A stretch of DNA of 64,000 nt from Candidatus Woesebacteria bacterium RIFCSPLOWO2_01_FULL_39_23 (GTDB taxonomy: Bacteria; Patescibacteriota; Microgenomatia; UBA8517), in NCBI GenBank assembly GCA_001793095.1, contig MGHG01000009.1, positions 15,450-79,449 on the forward strand, written 5' to 3'. The notes under the pieces are model-generated. The model worked only from the letters and a program-made list of their open reading frames with translations, made no database searches and had not been told where the DNA came from. A program made the position numbers and the translations under genes. Numbering within the stretch: the stretch's first letter is position 1; every line of letters begins with the position of its first letter. Shown here one piece after another: positions 23,674-48,582 of this stretch.

Positions 23674-25413
23674 ATGGCTGCCCGAAATATTTTTCCGCAA
23701 GACGTAAGCTCGACAAACCAGAAAACTTTAGCAGATATTCTTGTGGCAAAAGGCGTCTTGGATAGCGAGCATGCGAGGCAAGTAAAATTCAGTGAAATTC
23801 AAACAGGTAAAAGTCAGGAAGATATTTTATCCGAGCAAAATGTTGTAAGTGAGGCAGATTTAGTCCGAGCTAAAGCCGAACTTTATAATGTAACTTATGT
23901 TGATTTGGATACGCAGCCTGCTTCACCCGAAGCTCTCTCATCCCTCCCCCAGCAGGTGGCTGAGCGATTCGGTGTTTTTCCAATTACAGTTGATCTGACC
24001 AATAAAGTAATAGTTATAGCAATGAAGGACCCCCTCGACCTGGCTGCGATCAGTTTTGTGGAACAAAAAACGGGTCTTCGGGTAGATCCGCGTGCGGCGG
24101 AACCGACGAAAATAGCTAACTATATAGCCAGCGGATATTCAACGTCGCTTGCTAAGGAGGTAACGGAGGCTCTTAAGGAAGTTGCTCCGGAAAAAAAACG
24201 TGTTCAAATACTTGATATGGGAGTCGGCGGTGTAATCAGAGAAGAAAGAGTTGCCGAGGTTGTTAATCACATCCTCTCCTTTGCCGTCAAAGCGCGTGCC
24301 AGCGATATTCATATTGAACCTCAGGAAAAGATGACGAGAGTCCGTTACAGAATTGACGGTATCTTACAAGAGAAGCTGACTACACCCAAAGAGCTGCATG
24401 AGGCTCTTATTTCGAGAATTAAGATTCTCTCGGGAATGAAAATTGACGAAAAGCGGGTTCCTCAAGACGGTAGGTTTAATTTTTCGACGGGAGACGAAGA
24501 TGTAGATCTTCGTATCTCAACTCTTCCGACGGCGTGGGGTGAAAAGGTCGTAATGCGACTTCTCAAGAAAACCGGCGGTGTACCGAGTTTGTCTGAACTT
24601 GGCCTCAGGGGTAGGGCTTTAAAAAACCTTGGAGATGCCATCCTCAGGCCTCACGGTATAATTTTGATTTGCGGACCTACCGGATCAGGTAAAACGACAA
24701 CCTTGTATTCGATAATCCAAAATATCTCAACACCTAAAGTTAATATTGTTACCTTGGAGGATCCGATCGAATATAAAATTGCCGGGGTTAATCAGGTGCA
24801 GGTAAATCCTGTTGCCGGTTTGACTTTTGCATCCGGTCTTCGAGCTTTTCTAAGACAGGATCCGAATGTCATATTGGTCGGAGAGATTCGCGACCAAGAG
24901 ACGGCTGACTTAGCAGTTCAAGCAGCACTAACGGGTCATTTAGTGTTTTCTACCTTGCATACCAATGATGCTTCCGGAGCGCTCCCGAGACTATTAGATA
25001 TGGGTGCTGAACCGTATTTACTGGCATCGTCTATGACCGCTGTCGTTGCACAAAGGGTTGTCAGGAAGATCCATGCGGATTGCAAAGAAGGCTATTCTCC
25101 CGATGCAAAGATTGTAGGAGAGATAAAAGAGGGATTGGGTCCGCTTTGGAAGCCCGAAGGCAATGTTTCCTTTTATAAAGGTAAAGGCGATCCTGAATGC
25201 GGTAATACGGGCTATTACGGTAGAGTCGGAATATTTGAGGTCTTGCCTGTTACCGAAAAAGTGAGTAGGCTTATACTAGAAAAATCACCTGCATCGGAGA
25301 TGGATGCTGTCGCGAAAGAGGAAGGCATGATTTCGATGAAGCAGGATGGGTTTCTTAAAGTAATCGAGGGCATAACAACGATCGAGGAAGTCTTAAGGGT
25401 AGCACAAGAGTGA
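23674..25413 (+). CDS. pilB: Type IV pilus assembly ATPase PilB/GspE
   Basis: 579 aa. N-terminal GSPII_E_N-like domain. Walker A GPTGSGKTTTLYS, Asp/His boxes and a tetra-Cys motif. Confidence 0.9.
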   Translation: MAARNIFPQDVSSTNQKTLADILVAKGVLDSEHARQVKFSEIQTGKSQEDILSEQNVVSEADLVRAKAELYNVTYVDLDTQPASPEALSSLPQQVAERFGVFPITVDLTNKVIVIAMKDPLDLAAISFVEQKTGLRVDPRAAEPTKIANYIASGYSTSLAKEVTEALKEVAPEKKRVQILDMGVGGVIREERVAEVVNHILSFAVKARASDIHIEPQEKMTRVRYRIDGILQEKLTTPKELHEALISRIKILSGMKIDEKRVPQDGRFNFSTGDEDVDLRISTLPTAWGEKVVMRLLKKTGGVPSLSELGLRGRALKNLGDAILRPHGIILICGPTGSGKTTTLYSIIQNISTPKVNIVTLEDPIEYKIAGVNQVQVNPVAGLTFASGLRAFLRQDPNVILVGEIRDQETADLAVQAALTGHLVFSTLHTNDASGALPRLLDMGAEPYLLASSMTAVVAQRVVRKIHADCKEGYSPDAKIVGEIKEGLGPLWKPEGNVSFYKGKGDPECGNTGYYGRVGIFEVLPVTEKVSRLILEKSPASEMDAVAKEEGMISMKQDGFLKVIEGITTIEEVLRVAQE

Positions 25414-25496
25414 TGGCAACTTAGAACTCAAATGTTAAAACTAACAACTTTTTTCTGAAATTTTAAGCTTTAAGTTATAAGTTTTGAGCTAAAAGC

Positions 25497-26558
25497 ATGG
25501 CTATTAAAGATTTATTAGAACTTACAGTCCAAAGAGGTGCATCTGATTTACATATCATTGCCGGCCTCCCGCCCTATTTACGCGTTCAAGGCAATCTTCT
25601 TGCGGTCAAAAGTGAGGCCATCATGACTCAAGATATCATTGAAAAGTACCTTAAGGAAATCTTAAACCCTGAAAACTTAGAGCGCTTTGGTGTCAACCGT
25701 GAGCTTGACTTTTCACTTTCATTCAGCGCTAAGTCAAGATTCAGGGTAAATGCTTACACCCAAAGAGGTTCTTTTGCGATATCTTTCAGAAATATCCCGA
25801 TTGAAATCCCTCCGATTGATGAACTGGGTCTTCCGAAAATACTCCATGCATTTACTACGCTCCGGCAGGGTTTTGTCTTAGTTACCGGACCAACCGGTCA
25901 TGGTAAATCAACCACAATTGCCTCAATGCTTAATGAGATAAATGAGACCCGATCCTGTCATATTATTACAATTGAAGACCCGATTGAATTTTTGTTCAAA
26001 CCCAGAAATTCAATAGTCTCGCAACGTGAGATGGGTGGTGACACTCATTCCTGGCAAATTGCCCTAAGAAGTGTGCTTAGGGAGGATCCTGATGTTGTCC
26101 TTGTCGGAGAAATGCGGGATTACGAAACAATTTCAGCTGCGCTAACGGTTGCAGAAACCGGGCATTTGGTTTTTGCAACGCTTCACACCAACTCAGCCGC
26201 GCAAACAATCGATAGAATTGTTGATGTTTTTCCCGATGAACAGCAAAAGCAGGTCAGACTCCAACTGTCAAATGTCGTTGAAGCCGTATTTTCTATGCGT
26301 TTAATTCCGACGGTATCCGGAGACCGAGCAGTTGCTTACGAAGTTATGCTGGGAACCTCGGCTATTAAGAGCTCTATTCGTGAGGGTAAAACGCACCAGA
26401 TTGACAATATTTTACAAACTTCGACAGAGGTAGGTATGAATACTATAGAGATGTCTCTAGCTTCACTTATCAAAAGCGGGAGAATTACCCTTGAAACCGC
26501 ACAGTCTTTTTCACTTCGACCGGAAGAGCTTTCAAGACTTATGCGATCAGGGAGATAA
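25497..26558 (+). CDS. pilT: Twitching-motility retraction ATPase PilT
   Basis: 353 aa. GPTGHGKSTT Walker A. PilT-like N-terminus ASDLHI. Confidence 0.9.
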   Translation: MAIKDLLELTVQRGASDLHIIAGLPPYLRVQGNLLAVKSEAIMTQDIIEKYLKEILNPENLERFGVNRELDFSLSFSAKSRFRVNAYTQRGSFAISFRNIPIEIPPIDELGLPKILHAFTTLRQGFVLVTGPTGHGKSTTIASMLNEINETRSCHIITIEDPIEFLFKPRNSIVSQREMGGDTHSWQIALRSVLREDPDVVLVGEMRDYETISAALTVAETGHLVFATLHTNSAAQTIDRIVDVFPDEQQKQVRLQLSNVVEAVFSMRLIPTVSGDRAVAYEVMLGTSAIKSSIREGKTHQIDNILQTSTEVGMNTIEMSLASLIKSGRITLETAQSFSLRPEELSRLMRSGR

Positions 26559-26588
26559 GCATGTCAATTAACGGCTCTCTCGTTTTTT

Positions 26589-27951: not shown

Positions 27952-27969
27952 AGGTGAAACTTAAAATAA

Positions 27970-28527
27970 ATGACTGCCTATTTTAAAAAGTTTATGGATG
28001 ATAGTCGTAGAGGTTTCACTCTTATTGAGCTTCTTATAGTTATGGCAATTCTTGGAGTGTTAGCTGTTGTTGTTCTTGTGGCTATTAACCCTATTCAACA
28101 GCTGGCAAGAACCCGAGATACAGGTAGGAAATCAGGTGTAACTCAGTTAGGCCATGCCTTGGATGCGTACTACACAGCCAGAAATGGAGAATATGTGGCG
28201 GAAGGTACTACGTGGATCACTGCGCTGTCAACGTCCGGTGAACTGTCTACAATTCCAAGTTTAATTCAGTACGGAATTTCCGGTATAAGTGGTTGTTCTA
28301 ACGCCGGAGCCAATCCGCATAATAGCTGGTGTTATGATTTGGATACAACCGGGGGAACAAACGGACCGGCTGTGGTATATGCTGAACTCGAATCGAACGT
28401 TGAGAGGTCGAAATGCGGAAGTGGTGTGAGGGCGTGGTTTGTATACTCTTCTGCTGATGGTAGGGGCGGATTAATGTGTGATGCAGTACCGACACCTGGT
28501 ACTCAAAACTGGAATACTACACAATAA
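27970..28527 (+). CDS. pilA: Major type IV pilin (prepilin, class III signal)
   Basis: RG|FTLIELLIVMAILGVLAVVV has the N-methylation/cleavage motif with Glu+5. Two C-terminal Cys residues could form a disulfide loop. Confidence 0.8.
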   Translation: MTAYFKKFMDDSRRGFTLIELLIVMAILGVLAVVVLVAINPIQQLARTRDTGRKSGVTQLGHALDAYYTARNGEYVAEGTTWITALSTSGELSTIPSLIQYGISGISGCSNAGANPHNSWCYDLDTTGGTNGPAVVYAELESNVERSKCGSGVRAWFVYSSADGRGGLMCDAVPTPGTQNWNTTQ

Positions 28528-28815: not shown

Positions 28816-30693
28816 TCATTCTATGAATAAAGTGTCTATTTCTTTCGCTTTTTGAAAGTAAAGCACAGACTTATTTTCGTCCTTGTATCGATCGAAAATA
28901 TATTTTGAGGTAGTGATGTAACTTCTTACATAAAATCTTCTGATATGTTCGAATACCAAATTTTCCGATATTAAATTATCATTGTTTTTTATCTCCTCGA
29001 GATGATACTTCGAGAATATATCATCAGCTCGGTTAAGGTATTCATCTTCGCTTACGGATTTTTCTTTATCTTCCAGTACCATTTGATAAATCATGCCGTA
29101 GGGAATTGTTACAATTTTTCCATATTTTTCATCTTCTATTGTAAAACCGGTGTCCGTAAAAACCTCTTTACCTTGAGCCAATAGAGGTGCTATGGAAGAA
29201 TAAACGATATTTTTATCAATTTTATTATGTCTTTCAATAAGAATTTTATTTATCTCACTTTCGCTTAGGCCATATATGGCCATTAATTGTTCTGTTCCGC
29301 CATGATTACCCGGGATTGAAATATCCGGTCTCGTTCCTTGTACGAGCTGAGTACTTAAGGTATTAAAAGCCAGGGAGTCGTCAACGACCAATAAAAGTGC
29401 ATTTTGTGGCAATGTAGTCAGGATATCTACGCCAAGGTTCTCGCCTATATGGACATTACTAAGATTAGTTTTTCGATAGTTTGTAATTAAGATTGAAAGA
29501 GGAACGACTAAAAAGCTGATATATACTGTTTTGGTAACTAAATTTATTAACTTTTTATTTTTTAGAATTTTCCAAACTGTTTCTAAAAACAATAGAACCC
29601 CAAACGGAAAGATTAGATCGAGGACTATTATTGATGATAAATAAAATCGTTCAAGTATTGCTATTGTTCCGTAGTTAGTCAAATCAAGCCCTGCTATTAG
29701 TATAAAAATAGGACCCAGGAATAAATAACAACCTAAGAACAATATAAATGTTGTTAGTTTCCTTTTTCTGTCACCGTTTCTTAAAAGAAGATAAACAAAG
29801 CCCAATAAAGCAAATAAAACCGGGATAATCGTTGCATAATTTTTCAGGTATATTAGGTATGCGTCGGCATTTGTTAAAACGATATTTTGCTTATAACCTG
29901 TGAGCACGTTGTTCCAGCCGTAATCTTTACGGGTAATTATTGCTATTAGATTTTGAATGTTGACTACTCTGCCCCAGTTAAGAGGTGGGTTTTTTGACGC
30001 GGCGATTGGGATATATAAGTAAGGAAGTAATCCAAGTATAACAACAAATAGTGATTTTAGGAGAAGTTTAAAGTTTATTACTAATCTCCAATCAGTGACT
30101 AATATGACAAGACCAATTACCGGAAAAATTAAGACTATTGATAAATTGTTGGTTAAGGATAAGCCTATGAAAAAAGCAGTAGCAAGAATATATTTTTCTT
30201 GCTTATCGTAGATATATAATAGTGTTGAATAAATGATAGCAAGTATGAAAAAATTGTGTAGCGAAAATACTTCGACCACTTCAGCGTATATCCAGAAAGG
30301 GTAAGTAAAGGCAACAGTAAGAGCAGATATCGCGGATATTATTTTGTTTTTACTGATTTTATTAACTATTAGATATACAAGAACCACAGATAGTGTGGAA
30401 GAAAGACTAGACACTAGGCCAACTCTCCACGCTGGTGGTTTATTTATTGGCAGAAGGAGCGATAATATTCCTAAGATTGTGTAAAGTGGATAACCTGAAG
30501 GATGGGCGATGCCTTTAACGTAAGCCGCTGATAAAAAATCACCGGAATCTCCGCCAAAAACTGAAGGAGATAGGTTGTGGATATAGACTAGAAAAGTAAA
30601 GATAAATATTGACCCTTCAACTTTATGAATTTTTTGTATCTTAAGTTTTAGAATTCTTTTTAATGCATCAATCATATTTCTAGTTAATTCCAA
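28816..30693 (-). CDS. DUF2723/TMEM260-like GT-C-fold membrane glycosyltransferase
   Basis: 625 aa, polytopic. N-terminal GGDSGDFLSAAYVKGIAHPSGYPLYTILG matches the DSGxF...HPPGYPLY hallmark of the DUF2723/PMT-like family (from memory). Confidence 0.5.
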   Translation of the reverse strand: MELTRNMIDALKRILKLKIQKIHKVEGSIFIFTFLVYIHNLSPSVFGGDSGDFLSAAYVKGIAHPSGYPLYTILGILSLLLPINKPPAWRVGLVSSLSSTLSVVLVYLIVNKISKNKIISAISALTVAFTYPFWIYAEVVEVFSLHNFFILAIIYSTLLYIYDKQEKYILATAFFIGLSLTNNLSIVLIFPVIGLVILVTDWRLVINFKLLLKSLFVVILGLLPYLYIPIAASKNPPLNWGRVVNIQNLIAIITRKDYGWNNVLTGYKQNIVLTNADAYLIYLKNYATIIPVLFALLGFVYLLLRNGDRKRKLTTFILFLGCYLFLGPIFILIAGLDLTNYGTIAILERFYLSSIIVLDLIFPFGVLLFLETVWKILKNKKLINLVTKTVYISFLVVPLSILITNYRKTNLSNVHIGENLGVDILTTLPQNALLLVVDDSLAFNTLSTQLVQGTRPDISIPGNHGGTEQLMAIYGLSESEINKILIERHNKIDKNIVYSSIAPLLAQGKEVFTDTGFTIEDEKYGKIVTIPYGMIYQMVLEDKEKSVSEDEYLNRADDIFSKYHLEEIKNNDNLISENLVFEHIRRFYVRSYITTSKYIFDRYKDENKSVLYFQKAKEIDTLFIE

Positions 30694-32716
30694 TTATTTT
30701 TTCTAGGTCATCAGTTATCTTATCATCCCAAAAAGACTTTGCGGTATCAAAACCATTTTTTATTAACCTTTTAGTTTTGTTTGTATTTCTAATGGTTTTT
30801 CTGATTAAGTCTTTTTCCCAAAGATCTTCTAAATTATTTACTATAATAGCATTATGATTATTCTTGGCATATTCAAGAACTCCACCATTATTTGTTGAAA
30901 CAACTAAGCAACCCGATGCCATAGCTTCCAATCCAGGTATTGGCATTCCCTCTGTTCGACTTGTCGAAAGTAGTACGTCGTGTTTTCGATAAAGTTTAAT
31001 AATTTCTTCTTTCGGGGGATCAGAAATAAACTTGTCGAACAGCTTAGAATAAGGTTTTTTTTCTCTGCTTACTAACGTAAATGAATAGTCTCCATTTTTA
31101 TTCTTTAGCATTTTTACAACTTTTGTCAAAAGGTCCGTTCCCTTAACAGTAGTGTACCAAGATATTACAGAAAGCACTTTAGTCCGTCTGTTATAAAATT
31201 TCCTATTTAAAGAATTTTGCTTTTCTTGCTGACTCATTCTGAACCTTTTATCTAAAATACAATATGTTATTTTCTGAACATTGGAATTCCCGATTTCCTT
31301 AACTTTAGATTCCATAAATTTACTATGAACAATATTTTTAGTGGGTAGTTTGTAAGCATATTCCGCTAGTTTTTTAAAACCGATGAAATTGTGCATGCTC
31401 GGTCCCCAATCTTGTGAAAAAAAGAACTTCTTCTTTGCACGCATAAAATATAAAATATATGCTGTTGGCCAAAAAGTTGCGATGAGGACATCGGGTGCTT
31501 TCTTGAAACACGCCAAGATGAAATTATCGCAGTCGGCTTGTAATTTAAACCAATTTTGTTTTCTTCCCAGCAAAAAGAAGATATTTACGTGATAGCCTTT
31601 GTCTATAAAATTATTTGCTTGTTTAAACACGATTTCACTTCCAGTATTTTTAGAAGTATTAAATACTAAATAGCTGATATTTCCCTTTGAGGACCACTCG
31701 AGTGTGCTAAAAGTCTTTTTCTTTTTGAGGTAGTGATCAAAAATAATGCTTCCTGGGTAAATTGGAAGTTTGTCATTATTTAACCCCCGTTTTCTGAAAA
31801 GCCTGATGTAAAAACCGTGTTTAATAAAATCTAGATGCGCAAAAAACAAAGATTTTAAGTAAGGTCTTTGTCTACTGACGAAGTAATAGACATATGCAAC
31901 AATTTCTTGACCTATTCTGGCAGGAAGAATCTTAATGAGAGCTCGCCTATCAAGATTCCTGATAAGTATGTAAAGGTTATTACGATGTTCCCAATACCTT
32001 TTTAAAACAACATTTTTACTGGCTGATGCAGCAACCTTGTGATAAACAGTTGAATCTGAGGTGAATACAACTTTATAACCTGCACGCCATACGCGCCAAC
32101 AAAAATCAATTTCTTCCATATAATTAAAAAGGTCTTCATTAAATAAGCCACCGACCTTGTCAATAATGGACTTTCTGATTATGCAGGCTGAACCACTCGC
32201 CCAAAATATTGGCCAAGTGCCATCGTATTGTCCCGTATCTACTTCTTGGGTATTAAATATTCTCCCTCGTGTAAAAGGAAAACCGTATTTATCGATAAAG
32301 CCTCCTGCAGCGCCGGCATAGTCAAAGTAATTTTTTCTCTGTATCATTTTGATTTTCGGTTGAACAACTGCTATTTGTTTATCGTTTTCTATCAATAAGA
32401 CCAACGAATTTAACCAATTTGGGGTAACCTTGGTATCATTATTCAGAAGTACAATATATTTACCTGTTGTTTTTTTCAGTGCCCAATTATTACCTCCGGT
32501 AAAACCAAGATTTTTTTTAAACCGATATGTTTTAACAAAATCTTTAAATCTATTTTCCAAAATTACTGCCTCATTAATTTTTGAACCGTTATCGATTAAA
32601 ATTATTTCAAAGTTTGGATATTTTGTTTTTATTAAAGAGTTAAGACATTTAACTGTATCTTGTAAGCCATTAAAATTGAGAATTACTACTGATACTTTCG
32701 GAATATTTTTTTTCAT
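30680..32716 (-). CDS. Bifunctional glycosyltransferase: N-terminal GT2 domain fused to C-terminal GT1/GT4 domain
   Basis: VSVVILNFNG...IILIDNGS (GT2 DxD region) at the N-terminus. EGMPIPGLEAMASGCLVVSTNNGG (GT4 E-x7-E region) at the C-terminus. Confidence 0.7.
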   Translation of the reverse strand: MKKNIPKVSVVILNFNGLQDTVKCLNSLIKTKYPNFEIILIDNGSKINEAVILENRFKDFVKTYRFKKNLGFTGGNNWALKKTTGKYIVLLNNDTKVTPNWLNSLVLLIENDKQIAVVQPKIKMIQRKNYFDYAGAAGGFIDKYGFPFTRGRIFNTQEVDTGQYDGTWPIFWASGSACIIRKSIIDKVGGLFNEDLFNYMEEIDFCWRVWRAGYKVVFTSDSTVYHKVAASASKNVVLKRYWEHRNNLYILIRNLDRRALIKILPARIGQEIVAYVYYFVSRQRPYLKSLFFAHLDFIKHGFYIRLFRKRGLNNDKLPIYPGSIIFDHYLKKKKTFSTLEWSSKGNISYLVFNTSKNTGSEIVFKQANNFIDKGYHVNIFFLLGRKQNWFKLQADCDNFILACFKKAPDVLIATFWPTAYILYFMRAKKKFFFSQDWGPSMHNFIGFKKLAEYAYKLPTKNIVHSKFMESKVKEIGNSNVQKITYCILDKRFRMSQQEKQNSLNRKFYNRRTKVLSVISWYTTVKGTDLLTKVVKMLKNKNGDYSFTLVSREKKPYSKLFDKFISDPPKEEIIKLYRKHDVLLSTSRTEGMPIPGLEAMASGCLVVSTNNGGVLEYAKNNHNAIIVNNLEDLWEKDLIRKTIRNTNKTKRLIKNGFDTAKSFWDDKITDDLEKIIGIN

Positions 32717-33648
32717 ACTATGGACACCCTTTCTTTTTGAAGTATTAGATAAAGCTTGTAGAAGATATTTAAAATAATATTTTTAGGGAAAAAGGATTGT
32801 AAATAGAAAATATAGCTTTTAATGAATAGAGGCCGTTCTTTAATCAGTTTTAGAAAAGTCTTCCTTGAACTACTGCTATTACCTTCATAATAATTTTGTA
32901 TTGCATGGTAATAATAAGTGAGAAATTTAAAATCACATTGGAGCCTTTTTTGTATGGGTTGTGAATATGTGATCAAATGAGAGTATCGAATCCGGCTGTT
33001 GTTGTATATAACCTTATGTATGTTTTTAGTTAAGTTGGCACCATGCACGTTATAGGAATATGAGGGGTGATTTAGATAACCAAAGGGATATTTTTTTGCA
33101 AGCCTAAGCCATAATTCGAAATCTTCCACGGGTTCATATTTTTTTTGAAATAATTTAATTCCGACGAGAGCCTGTTTACGAACCATAACTGAGGGACAAA
33201 TAAGATAATTTTTTTTTAGCAATAGTGAAAGATAGGTATTTTCCGGCACATGATTAATGTATAAGAATTGTTTATTGTGTAAATAAAAATATGCATTTGT
33301 ATAACAGAACACACACCTGCTATTTAATTTTAAAAACTTAACTTGTTTATTGATTTTATCAGGTTTAATAGTATCGTCGTCGTCAAGAAAACAGATATAT
33401 TTGCCTTTAGCTTTTTTAAGGCCGTAGTTTCTGGAATCTGCAGGCCCACTGTTTTTTTTACGATAATACTTAATTCGCTTGTCGTTATCTCTTTTAACTA
33501 CTTGTTCAGTGTTGTCATTCGATCCGTCATCAACAACTATTATTTCAAGATTGGTATAGTCCTGTTTGGTTACGCTGTCCAGAGCTCTTTGTAACATTAC
33601 TACCCTATTGTAAGTAGGTATGATCACACTTACGAGACAGTCATTCAT
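32713..33648 (-). CDS. Family 2 glycosyltransferase
   Basis: VSVIIPTYNRVVMLQRALDSV...LEIIVVDDGSNDNT is a classic GT2 N-terminus. Confidence 0.75.
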   Translation of the reverse strand: MNDCLVSVIIPTYNRVVMLQRALDSVTKQDYTNLEIIVVDDGSNDNTEQVVKRDNDKRIKYYRKKNSGPADSRNYGLKKAKGKYICFLDDDDTIKPDKINKQVKFLKLNSRCVFCYTNAYFYLHNKQFLYINHVPENTYLSLLLKKNYLICPSVMVRKQALVGIKLFQKKYEPVEDFELWLRLAKKYPFGYLNHPSYSYNVHGANLTKNIHKVIYNNSRIRYSHLITYSQPIQKRLQCDFKFLTYYYHAIQNYYEGNSSSSRKTFLKLIKERPLFIKSYIFYLQSFFPKNIILNIFYKLYLILQKERVSIV

Positions 33649-38203: not shown

Positions 38204-38740
38204 ATGATACATTTTCTTCGCAAGGGTTATTCACTAGTCGAACTTTTGGTCGTTATTTCGATAATTATGGTCGTTTTTACGATCGTTAATGCCAATTATC
38301 GTGCTTATACACGAAAAAGGGCACTTGACGGTGTAGCTGAAGGCATAAAAGCCGATATAAGACTTGCCCAAGAATATGCTATTTCCGGCAAGAAACCTGC
38401 TGGTTCGTGCGATGCCTTGCAGGGAATTTATTTTAGAAGAATGGCAGGTTCGTATTATAGAATAGAAGCATATTGTAAAGTGGGTGGTGTAAATAGAACT
38501 TGTACTACCTCCCCCGGATATCCGGATTTATGTTATAAAGATGCAGTATATTTACCTTCTGGCTATACTATGGGAAATATCGTACCAGTCACACCTCTGA
38601 ATAATATTATATATTTCAAACTTGGCGGGAGGGGAAATTATTTAGACCCAGCAAGTTCGCCTTACTCCATTACTATTACGCAACCTTATACTTCGGCGAC
38701 CAAGGCAATCTATTTTACGGCGGGAGGAGAAGTATATTGA
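38204..38740 (+). CDS. Prepilin-type minor pilin
   Basis: KG|YSLVELLVVISIIMVVF. Confidence 0.7.
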   Translation: MIHFLRKGYSLVELLVVISIIMVVFTIVNANYRAYTRKRALDGVAEGIKADIRLAQEYAISGKKPAGSCDALQGIYFRRMAGSYYRIEAYCKVGGVNRTCTTSPGYPDLCYKDAVYLPSGYTMGNIVPVTPLNNIIYFKLGGRGNYLDPASSPYSITITQPYTSATKAIYFTAGGEVY

Positions 38741-39279
38741 TGAAAACTAATAACTTAAAACTTATAACTAATAACTTTAATTTGGGTTTACCCCGTACAA
38801 ACGCTCCCCGATACCCGATCGGGGTAAGTTCTGTGCGGGGACAGTCGATGGTTGAAGTTGTGTTTGCCATCGGAATAGCAGCCATTATATTGACTACTGT
38901 TGTTTCCGTTTCAGTATCTTCAGTTCGAAATTCGACTTTTTCAAAATTAAACTCTCAGGCCAATAGATATGCTCAGGATCTGAGCGAATGGTTACGCCGC
39001 CAAAGAGATCTTGATTGGGCGACGTTTAAAGCTAAAGCGAATACAACGGGCATTACCTACTGTTTTAAAACACCAAACCCGACTGCCTGGCCGGCTTCGG
39101 GAGTTTGCGGTAGTTCAGATTTTATGACAGGGACGAAGTTTATAAGACAAGCAAAGTTAAGTCTACCAAGCACAGATCCGTTGGTATTATCCGAAGTAAC
39201 TGTATCCTGGACTGACAGTCAAGGAACACATTCCGTAGTTTCAATAACGAAATTGGTGGACTGGAGGGCGCAACCGTGA
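38737..39279 (+). CDS. Prepilin-type minor pilin with a long leader (PilV/PilW-like)
   Basis: RG|QSMVEVVFAIGIAAIILTT with Glu+5. 35-aa leader. Confidence 0.55.
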   Translation: MMKTNNLKLITNNFNLGLPRTNAPRYPIGVSSVRGQSMVEVVFAIGIAAIILTTVVSVSVSSVRNSTFSKLNSQANRYAQDLSEWLRRQRDLDWATFKAKANTTGITYCFKTPNPTAWPASGVCGSSDFMTGTKFIRQAKLSLPSTDPLVLSEVTVSWTDSQGTHSVVSITKLVDWRAQP

Positions 39280-39797
39280 GGCAGAAGGCATATTCGTTAG
39301 TTGAAATATTAATTGTGATAGCAGTTTTTGCGGTTTTATCTATCGTAAGTACAATGGTCATTCAAACTGTATTGAAAAATGCAAACAAAACTCAATCTCA
39401 AATTAATGTTCGGGAAAACCTTGGCTATGTCATGTCTGTAATTGAACGGCAATTACAGTTATCCAAAGGTATAACGGTATGCCCAATTATCGACCCTTAT
39501 AAAGTAGATTTTACTTCAGAAACGGGAGTTGCAGCTTCATTTGTTTGTGAAAATATAGGGCTAACCGATCCGCAGGTTGCATCATATTCGGGTGTAACTA
39601 CCCCCGCTACTAAATATCGACTTACATCCAGTAGCGTGATTATTGATTACTGTAATTTTAGCTGCACTCACACGTTAGGGCAAAGAGATCTTGTTAAATT
39701 TTCAATTTCCGGCCACCAATTAAATAATTTTGAAGCTGAAGGTGCAACAGTTGTCATGCAAACCGAAATTCTTCTCCGCAACTATTCGAAGTATTAA
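39276..39797 (+). CDS. Prepilin-type minor pilin
   Basis: KA|YSLVEILIVIAVFAVLSIV. Confidence 0.65.
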   Translation: MRQKAYSLVEILIVIAVFAVLSIVSTMVIQTVLKNANKTQSQINVRENLGYVMSVIERQLQLSKGITVCPIIDPYKVDFTSETGVAASFVCENIGLTDPQVASYSGVTTPATKYRLTSSSVIIDYCNFSCTHTLGQRDLVKFSISGHQLNNFEAEGATVVMQTEILLRNYSKY

Positions 39798-39960: not shown

Positions 39961-39970
39961 AAGGTAAAGT

Positions 39971-41128: not shown

Positions 41129-41140
41129 TAGTGCAATTAA

Positions 41141-42112: not shown

Positions 42113-42183
42113 TTCTTCCCTACTTTAGTTGTGTTATTGAATAAATGGTGGTAAATCTGCTAAATTGGTATGAGATTCATTAA

Positions 42184-42783
42184 ATGGAAGAAGCGGCTAA
42201 TTTAATAAACACTCAAAGAAAGAATAAATTTCCGATATTTATTTATCTGATATTTTTGATATTATTTATAGCTGTAGTTGTATTAGCTTCTGTTTTGATA
42301 ATTTCCAAGCTTCCGTGTAGAGGCTACCTTGGAAAACCACAGTTTACGGGAGTAGTAGACCAAGAAAAAAACCTAGTCAGGGGTGATGATAATTTTTCAT
42401 CTATTAAGGTTAAGTCGTGCATTTTATCGCTGCAAAAAACAGATGAAAATGAGGTTGTATATAAGGTTGGTATATTTCGTGATTATTTTAGAATGGAAAA
42501 GTTCGATATTAGAATTGGAGGAAAATATCCCAAGGTTGCTGTATGTAATATTGATAAAGATGGTAAGTGCAAAGTTATAAACGCTCAAGATATAACACTA
42601 AACCTAAAACTGAAAAATATTTATAGTTTTTATTTTGTAGTTGTAGACAAAAAGTCGCAGTTAATTGAAACAAACTCTGAATATGAGAAATTTATGGATA
42701 GCTTAACAAAATTCTTGATAAACGAGTCTACTTATCAATCTAGCGGTGAAGTTGTTCAAATATCGCAAATAGATTTTGATTAA
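42184..42783 (+). CDS. Hypothetical N-terminally membrane-anchored protein
   Basis: 199 aa with a single TM helix near the N-terminus. Confidence 0.35.
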   Translation: MEEAANLINTQRKNKFPIFIYLIFLILFIAVVVLASVLIISKLPCRGYLGKPQFTGVVDQEKNLVRGDDNFSSIKVKSCILSLQKTDENEVVYKVGIFRDYFRMEKFDIRIGGKYPKVAVCNIDKDGKCKVINAQDITLNLKLKNIYSFYFVVVDKKSQLIETNSEYEKFMDSLTKFLINESTYQSSGEVVQISQIDFD

Positions 42784-45323
42784 TGATTATGAAAAGAATA
42801 TTATTTATTTTGTTTGGATTTACATCATTTATAATATTTTTTGGAGTTAGTAGAAGTATTGTAAATGCACAATGCGGGGACGGTCAATTTTGCGGTCTTG
42901 ACCAGGGTTACGATGCTACAGTAAGCCAAAATGTCAAGTATTGTTTTAGGAATGGTACAACATGGGAGTGTTCAAATACCCCGGCAAATGACTTCTGGTT
43001 ATGCGATGGTAGCTTTCCCTGCAGTGTTGCGGGAGGTGGCGGCGGTCCGGGGGGAAATTGTTCATACGTTGGTGATGTCCCATCTTGTTCACTTAATGTG
43101 ACTGCGGGTGGTTGCCCTGCTGATCCTACCGCGTGTAATGGTTGTGACATTGATCTGGTTGCTGATTCCTGCGACCCCATAAGTGTTCCAGTTTATACAG
43201 GTTGCTGTGTGGGTGCAGGGGGAGAATGTTCTTCCGAGTCTGAAGCGGGTTGTAATAGCGGTCAAAATGTGGGAGATTCGTGTGGCGGTGGTAGCATATG
43301 TATTGACTCGGGTAGCGAGGGAGGGGATGGTAAACCGATTTGTAATTGTGGTGGCGGAGGGAATGAAATTAATTGGTTACGGGCGAGAATAATGCTCGAT
43401 GCTAATGAAAATAATTTATTTGACGAGGGTGATGAATATTATGTCCAGGACAATAATATATTGAGCTGTTCGAATCTAGCGAATAATTATGTTACATTTA
43501 CAAACCTTTCTCCCTTAAAAATTTCCCCGGTTGGTTTTACTACGATAGACGTTCCAACAATTTGCCATTTAAGTGGTGAAAACGACAACAATCACCCCAA
43601 ATTTCCTTGGGCTATTGAACAACTTAATACAGATACGAGCTTTACTTTCAATTTTACCCTCCCCGCTAGTTACGAATTAGTTAATGTCGACAGGGGGAGT
43701 TGCAGTGTTTCGTCCCCTACGCAAGTAACATGTTCCGGTTGGGGCGGTGGTATTCAGGAAGTAACATTTTTAATCAGGTATAAAAGGAATACCTGTACGG
43801 TATCGGTCAGTCCTGCAACCGATAACAGTGTTCCCGGAAGTACGACAGTCACTTTAAGTGGAACGAATTATGACACTAATCCCGCTGACACCGTAAACCT
43901 AAATGTAATACGAAACGATTTTAAACAAGTTCCGAATTGGCAGACATCAATTACTCCCAACTCCCCTGCCGTTACAGAGACATTATCTAACGGTGTATAT
44001 TATTATAAAATTCCGGCTGCGGGATGTACGTCGTCTAATGGAACAGCATGCAGCAAAACAACTACCGTTAATCTTCCGGCGGCTGATTATACTTTTTTCT
44101 GTGATGTCCCCTACGCTCCATTTCAATGTTCTGGAAATCCCAATTGTACATATGAAGGAGGTACAATGGACTGCTCTGGTGGTGGTTGGGTTTCCTGTTC
44201 AGAGAGCGATCACACGCCATTTAGTGTCTATTTACAATGTCCATCCAATAGAACCAGTGTCTGTGACGGTACAGGAACTTCAGTTACTACGAGTTGGACC
44301 AATTTTTCGACGAATGATGCTGACAGCTATTACCATGAATTGGACGATAATCCAAATTCTTCACCGTATGTCGTAACAAATTCCGCGACGTCACCTTTAA
44401 CTCAATCTGTGATTGCCGGTACGCCATACAGATGGGAAATTCGAGGAAATCGGACTAATGACGATACTGAACCTCTTCCTGTCGGACCAACGGGCGGATG
44501 TTGGATCAGCTTTACGTGTAATCCGCCAGCCGCTCTTCCCTGGTGGCGGGTAACGGGATCAGGTATAACTGCTAACGGATTTATTCAATCAACCATACCT
44601 GCTGCCGGAATGTATTTAATTAACGATCCACCCGGTGTATTACAATACAATAATGACAATCCGCCAAGTCTGGGTTTGGGAAGTATTTCGAGTACGGGTT
44701 GGAACGTGAATTTAGCATCAGCCCATACCTATACGTATGATTTCTTCAGAAATAAGCTTCCCTCTTCAGTTACACCCACTCAACTAACAAACTGCACAAT
44801 CGCAGCAGCTAACCTAACTATCGGTGGTATGGAGTGGCCTGCCGGTTCAAACTACTTTTGGTATGAAACAACCTGTGCCAATAGTAGTATAACCATAGGG
44901 AGCTTAACCGATATCTCGATTAATTTGTTAGATAGAAAAGTAATATTATTTGCAAAGGACAAAGTGGTCAATATCACTAAACCAATCTTCTTAAATAATG
45001 GCAAAGGGTTTTTCGGCCTGTTTACAAGCAACGATATCTCCGTCGCTTCCTCAGTCGGCGGCTTAGCTGATACGTCACCGGATCTTGAGGGCATATTTTT
45101 TACTGAGGGTGATTTCAAATCGGGGGTTGGCAACTATGGCGAGGAACAGCTGCATGTGCGAGGCTCAGTTGCCGCAAATACTTTTACACTGGCGGGTCAG
45201 AGGAATTTACCTGATGATTCGGCAGATCCGGCTGAGCACTTTGAATTTGCACCCGATCTCATCTTTAATTTTCCTAAAGTACTCTCTCCAAGACTGATTA
45301 ACTGGAAAGAAGTTGCTCCCTAG
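42783..45323 (+). CDS. Large secreted Cys/Gly-rich protein (candidate pilus-associated adhesin, PilY1-position analog)
   Basis: 846 aa. Signal peptide. The N-terminal 200 residues contain more than 30 Cys, with G-runs. The C-terminal domains are Thr/Ser/Asn-rich. Sits between the minor pilins and pilX. Confidence 0.45.
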   Translation: MIMKRILFILFGFTSFIIFFGVSRSIVNAQCGDGQFCGLDQGYDATVSQNVKYCFRNGTTWECSNTPANDFWLCDGSFPCSVAGGGGGPGGNCSYVGDVPSCSLNVTAGGCPADPTACNGCDIDLVADSCDPISVPVYTGCCVGAGGECSSESEAGCNSGQNVGDSCGGGSICIDSGSEGGDGKPICNCGGGGNEINWLRARIMLDANENNLFDEGDEYYVQDNNILSCSNLANNYVTFTNLSPLKISPVGFTTIDVPTICHLSGENDNNHPKFPWAIEQLNTDTSFTFNFTLPASYELVNVDRGSCSVSSPTQVTCSGWGGGIQEVTFLIRYKRNTCTVSVSPATDNSVPGSTTVTLSGTNYDTNPADTVNLNVIRNDFKQVPNWQTSITPNSPAVTETLSNGVYYYKIPAAGCTSSNGTACSKTTTVNLPAADYTFFCDVPYAPFQCSGNPNCTYEGGTMDCSGGGWVSCSESDHTPFSVYLQCPSNRTSVCDGTGTSVTTSWTNFSTNDADSYYHELDDNPNSSPYVVTNSATSPLTQSVIAGTPYRWEIRGNRTNDDTEPLPVGPTGGCWISFTCNPPAALPWWRVTGSGITANGFIQSTIPAAGMYLINDPPGVLQYNNDNPPSLGLGSISSTGWNVNLASAHTYTYDFFRNKLPSSVTPTQLTNCTIAAANLTIGGMEWPAGSNYFWYETTCANSSITIGSLTDISINLLDRKVILFAKDKVVNITKPIFLNNGKGFFGLFTSNDISVASSVGGLADTSPDLEGIFFTEGDFKSGVGNYGEEQLHVRGSVAANTFTLAGQRNLPDDSADPAEHFEFAPDLIFNFPKVLSPRLINWKEVAP

Positions 45324-45380
45324 ATGTTTATATTCCTCTTTGTTAATTGACCGGTAAGTTACTGATTGCTAAACTGAGAT

Positions 45381-46331
45381 ATGGTTAATCTGCCTGGTGA
45401 GAGGTATCGGGAGAAAGGTCAAGCACTTCTTATCGTCTTACTTGTTATGAGCGTTGCTATTACTATTGTCCTTTCCGTTGTGGCACGCTCAATCAGCGAC
45501 GTTTCGGTTACGACGCACGAAGAAGAATCTGTACGCGCATTCAGCGCCGCTGAAGCCGGAATTGAAGAGGCTCTATTATCCGGGTTATCTGTCGGTCAAA
45601 CTACGCTTTCTAATAACGCAAGTTATGAGGCTAATGTATTTGAAACAAGTCCATCGGGAAGGTTTTTTATATATCCCGGCACATTATTAACGGGTGATTC
45701 GGCGACGGTTTGGTTTGTTTCCCATGACTCGGATGGGAATTTATCCTGTTCTCCCTACTGTACGGCTCCGACAAGAATTGATGTTTGTTGGGGGAAAAAG
45801 GGTACTCTCGATAATGATCCTGAAACTCCTGCTATAGAGGTGACAATTGTTTATGATTATGATCCTATCACTTCTACCACGGGTTACGCAACCGGAGTAA
45901 ATCACAATTACCAATATTTGAGAGTCGTAAGAGCTACTTTTGACCCAAATGTTAGTCGTTCAGCGGATAATAAATTTAACTCGACAAATTTGGGTACCGA
46001 TTGTACGGGTCTTGATCAGGTCTATGAATTTCAAAAAGCTAATTTATTATTGAACAATGCCGCAGAAAGATTGTACCTTGACTGCTGGATTACTCCCGGG
46101 TGCGCAATTGCTATGAAAATAAGATTCTTTTATAACACAACTACCGCTCAACCCCTTGCAATAAACGATCTTTTGCCTGTTAGTACTAATTTTCCCCCAC
46201 AAGGCAAACTTATAGAGTCGGTAGGGACTTCCACGGATATATCGAGAAAAATAAGCGTGTTCCAAGGTTATCCCGAAGTTCCGGTTATTTTTGAGACTGC
46301 TGTTACCAGTAGTTCGGATATTCAGAAATAG
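45381..46331 (+). CDS. PilX-N-domain-like minor pilus assembly protein
   Basis: EKGQALLIVLLVMSVAITIVLSVVARS resembles the PilX_N consensus (QRGAALIVVLLLL...). Confidence 0.5.
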   Translation: MVNLPGERYREKGQALLIVLLVMSVAITIVLSVVARSISDVSVTTHEEESVRAFSAAEAGIEEALLSGLSVGQTTLSNNASYEANVFETSPSGRFFIYPGTLLTGDSATVWFVSHDSDGNLSCSPYCTAPTRIDVCWGKKGTLDNDPETPAIEVTIVYDYDPITSTTGYATGVNHNYQYLRVVRATFDPNVSRSADNKFNSTNLGTDCTGLDQVYEFQKANLLLNNAAERLYLDCWITPGCAIAMKIRFFYNTTTAQPLAINDLLPVSTNFPPQGKLIESVGTSTDISRKISVFQGYPEVPVIFETAVTSSSDIQK

Positions 46332-46335
46332 TTGT

Positions 46336-47343
46336 ATGATTGGGCTAGATATCGGGTCAAAAACAATAAAAATTGCTGAGCTTGAACGCTCCGGTCAGAC
46401 TTTTCGGCTTCGCGCCTCGGGCGTCGTTGGTTATAAAAGTACAAGCCCCGAGAAAATGAATGATGACAAAGAGCTTGTTATCATGAGCGATGTTATAAGA
46501 AAATTATGTAAAGAAGCGAGAATCGGAACTAAAGAGGTTGTAGTATCTCTTCCCGAAACTCAGGTTTTCACTCGGTTGGTCAAGTTCCCGCTATTAACTG
46601 ATTCGGAAATAGCATCGGCCGTTAAGTGGGAAGCCGAACAATATATTCCCTTTCCGGTTGATGAAGCGGTAATTGAACATCAAATTTTGGACCGTAAACC
46701 CAACTCCACTCCCCCGCAGGTTTTTGTCCTATTAATTGCAGCACCGAAATTATTGGTTGAAAAATACATTAGGCTTGCTGAAATGGCTAAGTTGGAGACG
46801 GTGGCTGTTGAAACTGAGCTTATTGCACTTGCCCGGTCAATTTGTCCCCCGGATCAAACGGTTATGGTAGCCGATTTTGGCGCACGAGCCACAAATATTG
46901 CAATTGTCCGGAATGGGAATCTTATGATGGCACGATCAATTCCTACCGCCGGGGATGCGCTGACGCGGGCTGTGTCCCAGGGCCTTGGAGTAGAAACATT
47001 TCAGGCAGAGGAATATAAAAAAGTCTATGGCTTATCTTCGAGTCAGCTTGAAGGAAAAATAAAGGGAGTTTTAAACCCGGTGCTCGCCATGGTAACGGAT
47101 GAAATGAAAAAGGCAATTCATTATTATAGTGCTGAAGGAGAAGGCGATCCTCCAAGAACTTTAGTACTTTCAGGTGGGACGTCGAGTATGCCTAATGTTA
47201 TTGCGGTGATGACTGAGCTGACGGGCATGGAGGTGGTTATCGGTAATCCTTTCGCTCGTATTCAGGTTGATCCTGAAGCAGCAAAAACACTTATGAGCTA
47301 TGCGCCGGTTTATTCGATAGCGGTAGGACTTGCTATGCGTTAA
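46336..47343 (+). CDS. pilM: Type IV pilus assembly protein PilM (actin-like ATPase fold)
   Basis: MIGLDIGSKTIKIAEL start and FtsA/PilM-like fold motifs. The ORF-track start at 46291 overlaps the previous gene; the ATG at 46336 is preferred. Confidence 0.85.
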   Translation: MIGLDIGSKTIKIAELERSGQTFRLRASGVVGYKSTSPEKMNDDKELVIMSDVIRKLCKEARIGTKEVVVSLPETQVFTRLVKFPLLTDSEIASAVKWEAEQYIPFPVDEAVIEHQILDRKPNSTPPQVFVLLIAAPKLLVEKYIRLAEMAKLETVAVETELIALARSICPPDQTVMVADFGARATNIAIVRNGNLMMARSIPTAGDALTRAVSQGLGVETFQAEEYKKVYGLSSSQLEGKIKGVLNPVLAMVTDEMKKAIHYYSAEGEGDPPRTLVLSGGTSSMPNVIAVMTELTGMEVVIGNPFARIQVDPEAAKTLMSYAPVYSIAVGLAMR

Positions 47344-47344
47344 T

Positions 47345-47875
47345 ATGGCCAGAAATATAAATTTATTACCTCTTGAGTTTGTACCGAATAAAAAACTGGT
47401 TCGTATGGGGGCTGCGCTAAAAAAGTTAGCGATAATAAGTTATATTTTCTTTTTCTTGGCTGCAGGATCAATTGCTTATGCTCTTTATCGCTACGACAAG
47501 CACATAAAAGAGTTACGCAATAATAGAAATACATTAGAAGCTGAACTTGATAACCTAAAAAAAACCGAGACTAAAATTGTTTATTTAAAAGATAGGGCGG
47601 ACAAAGCTCAAAAGGTAATTGATGCAAATACCACGCGAAGTTCTATTGTCACGTTTTCTGAATTTGATAACCACATACCGCCTGGCATATTAATATCAGA
47701 TATGGCATTTAGAGGAAGTAGGGCTACTTTTAAGGTAGCGGCAGAGAATTCTGGCAGTTTGAGCCAGATGGTGCAATACGTTATTGGTACGACCGTTTTT
47801 AAAGCAATAATATTAGGCGATATAAAATTAGGGGAAAACGGTAAGTATACGACTACTATTACGGTTGAAATTTAA
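47345..47875 (+). CDS. pilN: PilN-like pilus assembly protein
   Basis: MARNINLLPLEF (the INLLP motif), a single TM helix and a coiled coil. Confidence 0.6.
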   Translation: MARNINLLPLEFVPNKKLVRMGAALKKLAIISYIFFFLAAGSIAYALYRYDKHIKELRNNRNTLEAELDNLKKTETKIVYLKDRADKAQKVIDANTTRSSIVTFSEFDNHIPPGILISDMAFRGSRATFKVAAENSGSLSQMVQYVIGTTVFKAIILGDIKLGENGKYTTTITVEI

Positions 47876-47877
47876 AT

Positions 47878-48582
47878 ATGGTTAATTTAGGGTTTGGTGA
47901 AAACGTAAAACTTAGAAGCTATAAAATAGTTTTAATTCCATTTTTTGCTTTAATTGTATTAATAATATTATTTATTTATGCCGCTACAACTGGTTATGGA
48001 AAGTTGAGAAGTCAAAAACAGATTATTGATGAATTGGAAAGAGATGACACAACGTTGGAAGCAAAAATAAATAATCTCAAAAACCTAGAAGCTCAAACTT
48101 ATCCTGACTCCACTGAGATGTTAATACGGTTTCCGAACGACAACCCCTCACTTTGGATGTTGGGACAGCTCATAAGAAAAGGTGAAGAAAGTGCCGTTAC
48201 ATTATTTGAACAAACTTTACTTTTCGATGAGGCCAGTCTGGAAAATATTACCGTTTCAACTATCAATTTCCAGGTTACCGGAAATAAAGAGAAAATTTTT
48301 GATTATTTGTTAAGTATCGACAACATATCCCCTATTTCGACTTTTGATTCTGTTGATTTCTCTGAAAGTGAGACTGCCCAGCAGGGTGCTCTTGTTAGTT
48401 TAAAGGTTTATTTTTCTCCTCTTCCAGAGGTACTTACTAATTTAAACGAAGTCGTTAATGAATTGACGCCTCTCGAGGTAACTACGCTAAATAAGCTTTC
48501 TGAGATGGAATTACCGGAATTTTCGACTCTCATGCCGAGCGCTAATTATGAACTGAAGGACCCCTTTAACTCTTTTCAGTAA
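47878..48582 (+). CDS. PilO-like pilus assembly protein
   Basis: Single TM helix, then a coiled-coil (LEAKINNLKNLEAQ) and a periplasmic-type domain. Follows pilMN. Confidence 0.4.
   Translation: MVNLGFGENVKLRSYKIVLIPFFALIVLIILFIYAATTGYGKLRSQKQIIDELERDDTTLEAKINNLKNLEAQTYPDSTEMLIRFPNDNPSLWMLGQLIRKGEESAVTLFEQTLLFDEASLENITVSTINFQVTGNKEKIFDYLLSIDNISPISTFDSVDFSESETAQQGALVSLKVYFSPLPEVLTNLNEVVNELTPLEVTTLNKLSEMELPEFSTLMPSANYELKDPFNSFQ

Follow-up and report, generated by a model that had tools for sequence, protein, structure and literature searches.

A probable type IVa-like pilus locus of Candidatus Woesebacteria, its pilins and its two inserted gene islands

What kind of filament is encoded by the long run of pilus genes in Candidatus Woesebacteria bacterium RIFCSPLOWO2_01_FULL_39_23, and which of the genes in that run belong to it? 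This organism is an ultra-small bacterium from groundwater and a member of the Candidate Phyla Radiation (CPR, also referred to as Patescibacteria), and its type IV pilus locus occupies positions 23674-48582 of the 64-kb stretch of DNA analysed here (the window, to which all coordinates refer). Pilus loci that contain PilT and lack a secretin are already well documented in CPR bacteria. A closed Microgenomates genome carries a single-locus type IV pilus with PilT and without pilQ (PMC7143001); Saccharibacteria assemble two functional, PilT-dependent pili using PilB, PilT, PilC, PilMNO and pseudopilin-like minor pilins (PMC11623550); and pili-like appendages linking ultra-small groundwater cells to host cells have been seen by cryogenic transmission electron microscopy (PMC7906910). 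Here, we describe the pilus machinery of the Woesebacteria locus, compare it with related loci, and examine the genes that interrupt it. The locus very probably specifies a chromosomal type IVa-like pilus of a single-membrane cell and has received two insertions; these two foreign gene islands excepted, it is ordinary for the CPR group.

Machinery of the pilus

Listing and translating the open reading frames (ORFs) between 23.6 and 48.7 kb, combined with family searches, reproduced the complete locus and the gene order that a first-pass annotation had proposed: on the plus strand pilB, pilT, pilC, pilA1, pilA2, pilD, eight pilin-like ORFs, four unannotated ORFs, a PilX-like ORF, pilM, pilN and pilO (Table 1). 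One correction to that description concerns the three glycosyltransferase genes between pilA1 and pilA2, which lie on the minus strand. Two start codons are also best revised, pilM most likely beginning at ATG 46339 and not TTG 46291, and pilN at ATG 47345 and not TTG 47330.

All parts expected of type IVa-like machinery in a monoderm are encoded. The extension ATPase belongs to the PilB/GspE family and scores about 540-551 bits against the NCBIfam GspE and PilB models, slightly higher for GspE and in both cases under the equivalog cut-offs; binding of cyclic di-GMP by its N-terminus is not claimed, the motif model giving E = 0.014, under its cut-off. The dedicated retraction ATPase, PilT, is intact and clears its family cut-off. 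PilT proteins carry an AIRNLIREGK motif, and the protein encoded here reads SAIKSSIREGK at that site. As the first-pass annotation argued, PilT would make the pilus retractile. PilC has the two T2SSF domains of a platform protein, and the bifunctional PilD shows both CxxC...CxxC cysteines and a GDVK motif.

The first-pass annotation had staked its reading on the alignment complex, and the assignments of PilM, PilN and PilO hold. PilM is unambiguous from its family matches. In PilN, the peptide INLLP is what binds PilM, a role of the N-terminal motif that Karuppiah and Derrick reportedly described in 2011; the window protein carries it. Across 41 aligned positional orthologues, I5, N6, L7 and P9 never or hardly ever vary, and eight of these orthologues match the Pfam PilN model, which the window protein itself matches only below threshold. 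The window PilO protein has no Pfam match by itself. Among its 41 orthologues, however, 18 match Pfam PilO (best 7e-10) and 14 match T2SSM_b, and the top PDB sequence match of the orthologue profile is Myxococcus xanthus PilO (3jc8_Oa, E = 2.7e-5). The GspG and PilX_N models, searched alongside, gave matches under their cut-offs.

Pfam scans of every ORF of at least 200 amino acids (aa) in the 64 kb, and of most ORFs of 100-200 aa, returned no Secretin or PilP match, in agreement with the earlier statement that PilQ and PilP are missing; the next gene downstream of pilO is transcribed in the opposite direction. No counterpart of the PilQ-PilP pair of diderm type IVa pili of the Pseudomonas/Myxococcus type was thus found among these ORFs. 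The presence of PilT and PilMNO, together with this negative result, supports the reading of a complete, monoderm-type locus for a type IV pilus.

Table 1. Features of the pilus locus, with positions in the window (a slash within a peptide marks the cleavage position; cut-offs are those of the family models)
Feature	Position	Strand	Evidence
PilB, extension ATPase, 579 aa	23674..25413	+	Pfam T2SSE 1.8e-127; N-terminal MshEN/T2SSE_N, MshEN 1.6e-14
PilT, retraction ATPase, 353 aa	25497..26558	+	TIGR01420 pilT_fam 442 bits, cut-off 319
PilC, platform protein, 401 aa	26589..27794	+	Pfam T2SSF 7.7e-63, two stretches
PilA1, candidate major pilin (G/FTLIELL)	27970..28527	+	N_methyl 7.9e-10
Glycosyltransferase island, three genes	28816..33648	-	Pfam matches; guanine-plus-cytosine (GC) content 0.327
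GT-C, TMEM260-like/PMT_2	28816-30693	-	Pfam (PMT_2 borderline)
GT2+GT1 fusion	30680-32716	-	Pfam
GT2	32713-33648	-	Pfam
PilA2, second candidate major pilin	33844..34449	+	N_methyl 6.4e-7; promoter-like site upstream
PilD, prepilin peptidase/N-methyltransferase	34480..35289	+	A24_N_bact 3.7e-29; Peptidase_A24 4e-17
GspG-like pilin paralogue, non-canonical (MKP-FTKSE...)	35286..35885	+	TIGR01710 GspG 1.5e-8, under cut-off
Four GspG-like prepilin paralogues	35925-36482, 36486-37061, 37065-37568, 37571-38194	+	N_methyl matches
H-like minor pilin (G/YSLVELL)	38204..38740	+	best NCBIfam PpdD, GspH, ComGD, all under cut-off
I/PilV-like minor pilin (RG/QSMVE)	38737..39279	+	TIGR02523 PilV 3.3e-6, under cut-off
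J-like minor pilin (KA/YSLVE)	39276..39797	+	TIGR01711 GspJ top match 3.8e-6, under cut-off
Two orphan secreted proteins, 385 aa (twin-arginine translocation (TAT)-like RREFIRAA signal) and 323 aa (TRDFLK)	39971-41128, 41141-42112	+	sequence
199-aa protein, one N-terminal transmembrane helix, translationally coupled to next gene	42184..42783	+	sequence
u846, 846-aa secreted protein, Sec signal, Cys/Gly-rich variable N-terminal part	42783..45323	+	conserved C-terminal domain
K/PilX-like large minor pilin, 316 aa (KG/QALLI)	45381..46331	+	PilX_N 0.008, GspK 1.5e-4, both under cut-off
PilM	46339..47343	+	PilM_2 3.1e-50; TIGR01175 192 bits, cut-off 133
PilN	47345..47875	+	N-terminal MARNINLLP; Pfam PilN E = 0.011
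PilO	47878..48582	+	orthologue profile to M. xanthus PilO; Pfam PilO/T2SSM_b matches among orthologues

Pilins and the layout shared with related loci

Pilins with the class III signal (G/F-x-x-x-E followed by a hydrophobic helix) are present in number. A scan of the 64 kb for the canonical prepilin motif, taken as [GA]-[FYQ]-[ST]-x-x-E and then a hydrophobic run, found nine instances, all on the plus strand inside the locus and none elsewhere, and the proteins concerned include N_methyl matches; two further pilin-like genes, 35286-35885 and 45381-46331, are non-canonical. PilA1 and/or PilA2 are the candidates for the major pilin. They are 44% identical over their full length, and the duplication that produced them is old, since identity across the shared 5' DNA reaches only about 76%; a recent tandem duplication of the pair as a recombination cassette was considered and rejected on the same figure.

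For comparison, we searched species-representative genomes for relatives of pilM and took the 80 best, many of them titled Woesebacteria, Microgenomates or Patescibacteria, called ORFs within 10 kb on either side of pilM, and searched these with BLASTP against the window proteins. Many metagenome-assembled genomes in this set (loci L003-L082) that carry a Woesebacteria-type locus are titled 'uncultured Gammaproteobacteria bacterium', with one Bathyarchaeia and one Bdellovibrionales; such record titles are likely placeholder or mis-binned labels. The mapped relatives share one layout: pilB-pilT-pilC, one to three copies of pilA, pilD, a variable run of GspG-like pilins, the four distinct single-copy pilins H-I-J-K, and pilM-pilN-pilO, beyond which come RNase III, nusB and recG, encoded on the other strand.

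Against this background, the pilins that follow pilD can be sorted. The first-pass annotation had described eight tandem minor pilins forming an unusually long array. Eight are present; they are not one uniform set and comprise five GspG-like pilins followed by an H-, an I- and a J-like one. Nor is the array long for the clade: in the 53 related loci where pilD is included and K immediately precedes pilM, the pilin ORFs between pilD and K number 2-11 with a mode of 7, and 16 loci have at least eight. It is the GspG-like pilins whose copy number varies among relatives. Four of the five in the window are mutually similar, the ORFs starting at 35925, 36486 and 37065 being full-length paralogues (35-44% pairwise identity over about 160 aa), which 37571-38194 resembles mainly over the N-terminal half.

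The fifth, 35286-35885, is only weakly similar to the others and belongs to a conserved family; 52 of the 80 related loci have a detected orthologue, as a rule immediately 3' of pilD. Its members begin MKxFTKxE and keep the register of FTLxE pilins up to an ARD motif, including Glu5, but their leader is three residues long and Gly is missing at -1, as it is in the window protein. Processing by PilD is, on this sequence, doubtful, and the family may represent an unprocessed or differently processed pilin.

The first-pass annotation had further pointed to non-Gly residues at -1 and to long leaders. The former are real and extend beyond 35286-35885 to an Ala at -1 in 37571-38194, shared with several orthologues, and in the J-like 39276-39797, versus Gly in at least 90% of J orthologues. 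The latter depend on the choice of start codon. That of 37571-38194 is ambiguous between ATG 37571 and ATG 37685, with a hairpin between the two. For 38737-39279, ATG 38740 overlaps the upstream stop codon (TGATG) and is preceded by a GGAGGAG Shine-Dalgarno sequence; we considered that long leaders could be pure ORF-calling artefacts, and this coupled start with its ribosome-binding site favours the long, 34-residue leader, which is plausible for this gene.

The best NCBIfam matches of the four conserved minor pilins run in the order H, I/PilV, J and K. H, I, J and K are nevertheless used here as working names and not as memberships, because all of these matches lie under the family cut-offs. 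The H-like gene is a conserved single-copy gene in the mapped relatives, and the I-like family has the consensus GQSLFEVV. GspK lacks the Glu at position 5 of other pilins, and so does K, in whose family G13-Q14 are invariant; a K homologue could be identified in all but two of the 80 related loci (78), directly 5' of pilM wherever mapped. An AlphaFold2 model of K from a 64-sequence alignment (mean predicted local distance difference test score (pLDDT) 85, predicted template modelling score 0.77) pairs an N-terminal helix of 56 residues with a head made wholly of beta structure, which recalls the unclassified beta-jelly-roll-like head of Saccharibacteria PilX1 (PMC11623550), at least at the level of the model. 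In Foldseek searches of this model and of a model of the 846-aa protein described below against the PDB, nothing reached E <= 1e-3; the Thermus pilin ComZ, at rank 11 (E = 0.12, template modelling scores 0.14/0.21), was not significant and was not used.

Two gene islands within the locus

The first interruption lies between the pilA paralogues. The GC content of this glycosyltransferase island contrasts with 0.42-0.43 in the pilus genes on both sides, and none of the 80 related loci has a gene corresponding to either of its two GT2-type genes. Homologues of the GT-C gene occur in eight other related loci, several of them from Gottesmanbacteria, and adjoin pilA in the three that were mapped. 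The island is a lineage-specific insertion into a conserved locus. Because its GT-C gene recurs beside pilA, it is a reasonable inference that the island is a candidate pilin O-glycosylation system. Upstream of pilA2 stands one of the two strongest promoter-like matches of the locus (TTGACA-18-TAGAAT, 33761-33790, 11 of 12 positions); this and the other such sites and hairpins mentioned here are consensus or pattern matches only.

The second interruption separates J from K. The gap between these two genes is at most 170 bp in 42 of 49 related loci, versus 5.6 kb in the window. The four hypothetical genes in the gap had been counted as components of the pilus locus; they are instead an inserted variable module, and the first three of them (39971-42783) have no homologue in the 80 related loci. 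The 385-aa and 323-aa proteins match nothing in Pfam or NCBIfam. The other of the strongest promoter-like matches, TTGATT-18-TATAAT with an upstream TG (39830-39859), precedes the insert, and a weaker one (45347-45375) precedes K. Two hairpins (39909-39962) stand before the first gene of the insert, the second being AACCCTCC-TTAAA-GGAGGGTT with a U-run that overlaps the GGAGG just before ATG 39971; the structure could terminate transcription of the pilin genes or act as a leader in which the ribosome-binding site is hidden.

The last gene of the insert, u846, belongs to a large family. A word-indexed search was weak, returning the protein itself and one weak match for the full length and three matches for the C-terminal domain, and exhaustive HMMER was needed to find 798 clusters at 50% identity at E <= 1e-3, or 604 at E <= 1e-10. 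What unites them is the C-terminal domain of about 265 aa (approximately residues 575-846, about 44505-45320), which ends WKEVAP: among the 150 matches listed, nearly all run through the C-terminal region of the query to residue 846, and in the 60 sequences inspected the match lies at the subject's own C-terminus and ends in a WKEVAP-like sequence. AlphaFold2 is confident for this domain only (pLDDT 87-98). The domain has no match in Pfam or NCBIfam, and neither sequence nor fold comparison with the PDB gave a significant match for it. Family members have a Sec signal and a Cys-rich N-terminus and differ in the domains that precede the conserved one, among them Big_2, fn3, TSP_1 and Hint, a variable pattern that, by analogy, looks typical of surface adhesins. 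Weak DUF7305 matches lie inside the C-terminal domain of two relatives, and a literature search for DUF7305 returned no papers.

Where do u846-family genes occur? Between J and K they are found, in both orientations, in the window and in five relatives (L045, L057, L059, L061 and L062), and directly 5' of K in four loci whose J lies outside the retrieved stretch (L056, L058, L060 and L079); two further loci have one just beyond pilO or nusB. For the large majority of related pilus loci, no u846-family gene stands in the 10 kb to either side of pilM. Seven contexts outside these loci were examined (L083, L084/L085, L086, L087, L088, L089 and L090), and no pilin or pilM gene is present in their available flanks. 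In five of the seven (L084/L085, L086, L087, L088 and L090) a tightly coupled gene for a protein of about 170-233 aa without a Pfam match lies directly 5' of the u846-family gene, as the 199-aa gene does in the window; the two such partner proteins inspected, and those at J-K sites, begin with a hydrophobic stretch. Homology among these partners of about 200 aa gave marginal E-values only, with a tiny database, and was not established, so that the pairing rests on synteny, size and, where checked, the N-terminal hydrophobic stretch. Further upstream, L084/L085 and L086 encode a 520-536-aa protein with a lipoprotein-like signal. Its counterparts in L062 (7126-8931 (-), RRDFLKAAG), L056 (2850-4388 (-), RRDFLKLSA) and the window have TAT-like signals instead, of the form RRxF(L/I)K. 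Nucleotidyltransferase/HepT-like, Fic-like and other small genes are likewise present at the J-K sites (L058 8379-9051, L060 5757-8603, L059 2725-3375 and L045 8371-8868), calls that rest on sequence reading and mutual similarity and not on Pfam; in L083 (1501-3131), Pfam does annotate nucleotidyltransferase/HepT-like and Fic genes. Judged by their sequences, the small genes at the J-K junction are consistent with a hotspot for variable islands.

We therefore regard the insert as probably a self-contained module of surface proteins that has entered a hotspot for insertions, and not as a component of the pilus. The contrary proposal is that u846 is a PilY1-like tip adhesin whose C-terminal domain sits on J/K and whose N-terminus binds the host, the genes upstream encoding chaperones or accessory proteins. 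PilY1 has a conserved C-terminus and a variable N-terminus, and the domain logic of u846 matches this; adhesin-type Big_2, fn3 and TSP_1 domains occur in the family, the weak DUF7305 matches fall in the C-terminal domain, and the recurrence of u846-family genes between J and K, 5' of K, or beyond pilO or nusB can be read in the same sense. A large pilin with an accessory domain is, moreover, the pilus adhesin of Saccharibacteria (PMC11623550). However, the C-terminal PilY1 beta-propeller that would mark a PilY1/PilC tip adhesin encoded with minor pilins was not found: the full 846-aa protein has no Pfam match, hence none to PilY1, a Foldseek search of the u846 model against the PDB gave nothing at E <= 1e-3 and no PilY1 propeller, and hhalign found no relationship between the u846 and K families. 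All seven outside contexts are free of pilin and PilM genes in their flanks, the large majority of related pilus loci do without a u846-type gene near pilM, the module lies on the strand opposite to the pilus operon in most other loci, and the same sites also collect small genes of variable islands. L056-L062 may, in addition, be one clade, which would leave few independent insertions. We consider a role for u846 at the pilus tip improbable. Equally improbable is the broader idea that the insert defines a widespread, undescribed CPR surface system, recruited repeatedly in Woesebacteria as an exchangeable PilY1-like tip head; if it were true, that system would consist of a secreted TAT-like or lipoprotein-type protein, a membrane protein of about 200 aa, and a variable Cys-rich or Ig-like protein with the conserved C-terminal domain of about 265 aa.

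Function, nearest known systems and outlook

Two other readings of the locus as a whole have to be set against a type IVa-like pilus. DNA uptake has been proposed for CPR type IV pili (PMC7143001), and the machinery described here, with PilT, is of the retractile kind; the filament could be mainly a competence pilus that feeds nucleotides or DNA to an organism that does not synthesise them. Yet no comEA, comEC or dprA was found among the scanned ORFs of the window, and the architecture is not ComG-like: a ComG system would have comGA-GG without PilT or PilMNO, accompanied by comE genes, and the window has PilT and PilMNO and no comE. In Saccharibacteria, experiments have demonstrated that the pili are used to bind the host and to twitch (PMC11623550). 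A mainly competence-related pilus is in our view a possible but doubtful alternative, adhesion and DNA uptake not being mutually exclusive. Far less likely still, the locus could encode a type II secretion system or a hybrid secreting pseudopilus, without an external fibre. Such a reading can draw on the pilins, most of which have their best sub-threshold matches to GspG, H, I, J or K, and on the slightly higher score of PilB against GspE than against PilB. Core minor pilins are, however, homologous to pseudopilins in general. A type II secretion system would have GspD and GspC/L/M and lack PilT; here PilT passes its cut-off, PilM, PilN and PilO take the place of GspL, GspM and GspC, and GspD, GspC and GspL were not found in the scans of the window. 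CPR relatives, too, display external pili (PMC7906910, PMC11623550).

Several points weigh against the type IVa-like reading itself, or against parts of it. The secretin search was confined to the 64-kb window. Either PilA1 or PilA2 may be the major subunit. The subtype matches of H, I, J and K all fall under their family cut-offs, the H, I and J family profiles share with PDB sequences only the N-terminal helix, the K profile matches nothing there, and a Foldseek search of the K model against the PDB gave nothing at E <= 1e-3 and no GspK. For O-glycosylation, what is seen is the linkage of a glycosyltransferase gene to pilA, and a glycan on the pilin is the expectation drawn from it. Finally, a u846-family gene sits exactly between J and K in at least 7 other genomes, in both orientations, which may reflect a functional link to the pilus and not a hotspot.

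As a type IVa-like pilus, the system could work as follows. PilD would cleave and methylate the prepilins, and PilB, acting on PilC and the PilM-PilN-PilO alignment complex, would polymerise PilA1 and/or PilA2, with a tip complex of the minor pilins H-I-J-K priming assembly. PilT would depolymerise the filament and so retract it. No secretin would be needed because the cell would have no outer membrane. The run of GspG-like paralogues might provide alternative or low-abundance subunits, the low-GC island between the pilA paralogues may glycosylate pilins, and the four-gene module in the J-K hotspot would form a separate cell-surface adhesin built on the pair of a membrane protein of about 200 aa and a u846-family protein. 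By analogy with Saccharibacteria (PMC11623550), attachment to host cells and twitching are the likely uses, and DNA uptake is possible (PMC7143001).

The nearest experimentally known system is T4P-1 of Nanosynbacter lyticus TM7x (PMC11623550), another CPR bacterium, in which one locus likewise encodes pilB, pilT, pilC, pilM, pilN, pilO, pilD and several pilins, including minor pilins that resemble type II secretion pseudopilins and a large pilin of the PilX type whose accessory domain is rich in beta structure, and in which O-glycosylation is suspected. TM7x belongs to a different class-level lineage, however, and has 5 pilin genes in this locus versus 11 in the window, where two pilA genes are split by a glycosyltransferase island and a four-gene insert lies between J and K; the Woesebacteria system is known from its genes alone. 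The single-locus system of Microgenomates Ch65 (PMC7143001), from the same superphylum group, also has PilT, no pilQ and GspJ/PilW-like minor pilins, whereas only PilM is listed there, with PilN and PilO uncalled, and neither a glycosyltransferase island nor a J-K insert is reported. Type IV pili of Clostridium and Streptococcus sanguinis share the monoderm setting, pilB, pilT, pilC, pilD and pilMNO, the lack of PilQ and PilP, and several pilins that may coexist in one filament; Gram-positive type IV pili were the subject of an account that Melville and Craig are said to have given in 2013. The sequence relations to these are remote, and Woesebacteria have a clade-specific H-I-J-K set and a variable GspG-like array. 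A heteropolymeric monoderm pilus structure is cited in PMC11623550. The H-I-J-K set itself is closest to the FimU-PilVWX-PilY1 and GspHIJK tip complexes (PMC7541494), having four distinct minor pilins encoded together in fixed order and single copies, the last of them large and without Glu5; it differs in that the family scores are under cut-off, K has no GspK-like fold match, and most relatives lack a PilY1 homologue or analogue in the locus.

The surroundings of the locus are those of a chromosome, since its flanks consist of housekeeping genes: dnaB, efp, gyrA, an H+-pyrophosphatase, gyrB, RNase III, nusB, recG, a class I aminoacyl-tRNA synthetase of the Trp/Tyr type, a class A penicillin-binding protein, pheST, infC and thrS. 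The membrane-bound H+-translocating pyrophosphatase (18519-20528; H_PPase, 843 bits), between gyrA and gyrB, may contribute to membrane energisation in an organism of minimal metabolism. A membrane protein with a DUF5656 match is encoded at 10151-10927. An XerC/D-like tyrosine recombinase (12660-13610; Phage_integrase and a SAM-like N-terminal domain) is flanked by unannotated ORFs and lies some 550 bp away from the gyrA end. Near nusB and recG lies a gene for a Trp-repressor-family protein (50919-51491; 3.6e-14) with a homologue in 2 of the 80 syntenic loci, a small lineage-specific difference.

The traits that had been flagged as unusual take on another meaning: the number of pilins is typical of the clade, and the four hypothetical genes probably have no part in the pilus. 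For CPR bacteria, type IV pili are the best-supported route to host attachment, movement and possibly DNA uptake, and in genomes where most such genes are labelled hypothetical, the resolved locus and the clade-wide layout can serve as a template for annotation. The practical gain is a sorting of the genes into conserved machinery, a GspG-like array of variable copy number, and two variable islands. What interest remains attaches to the u846 family and to the two islands as candidate determinants of host specificity; with its size and its unannotated conserved domain, the u846 family makes sense as a subject of structural and functional study, regardless of any link to the pilus.

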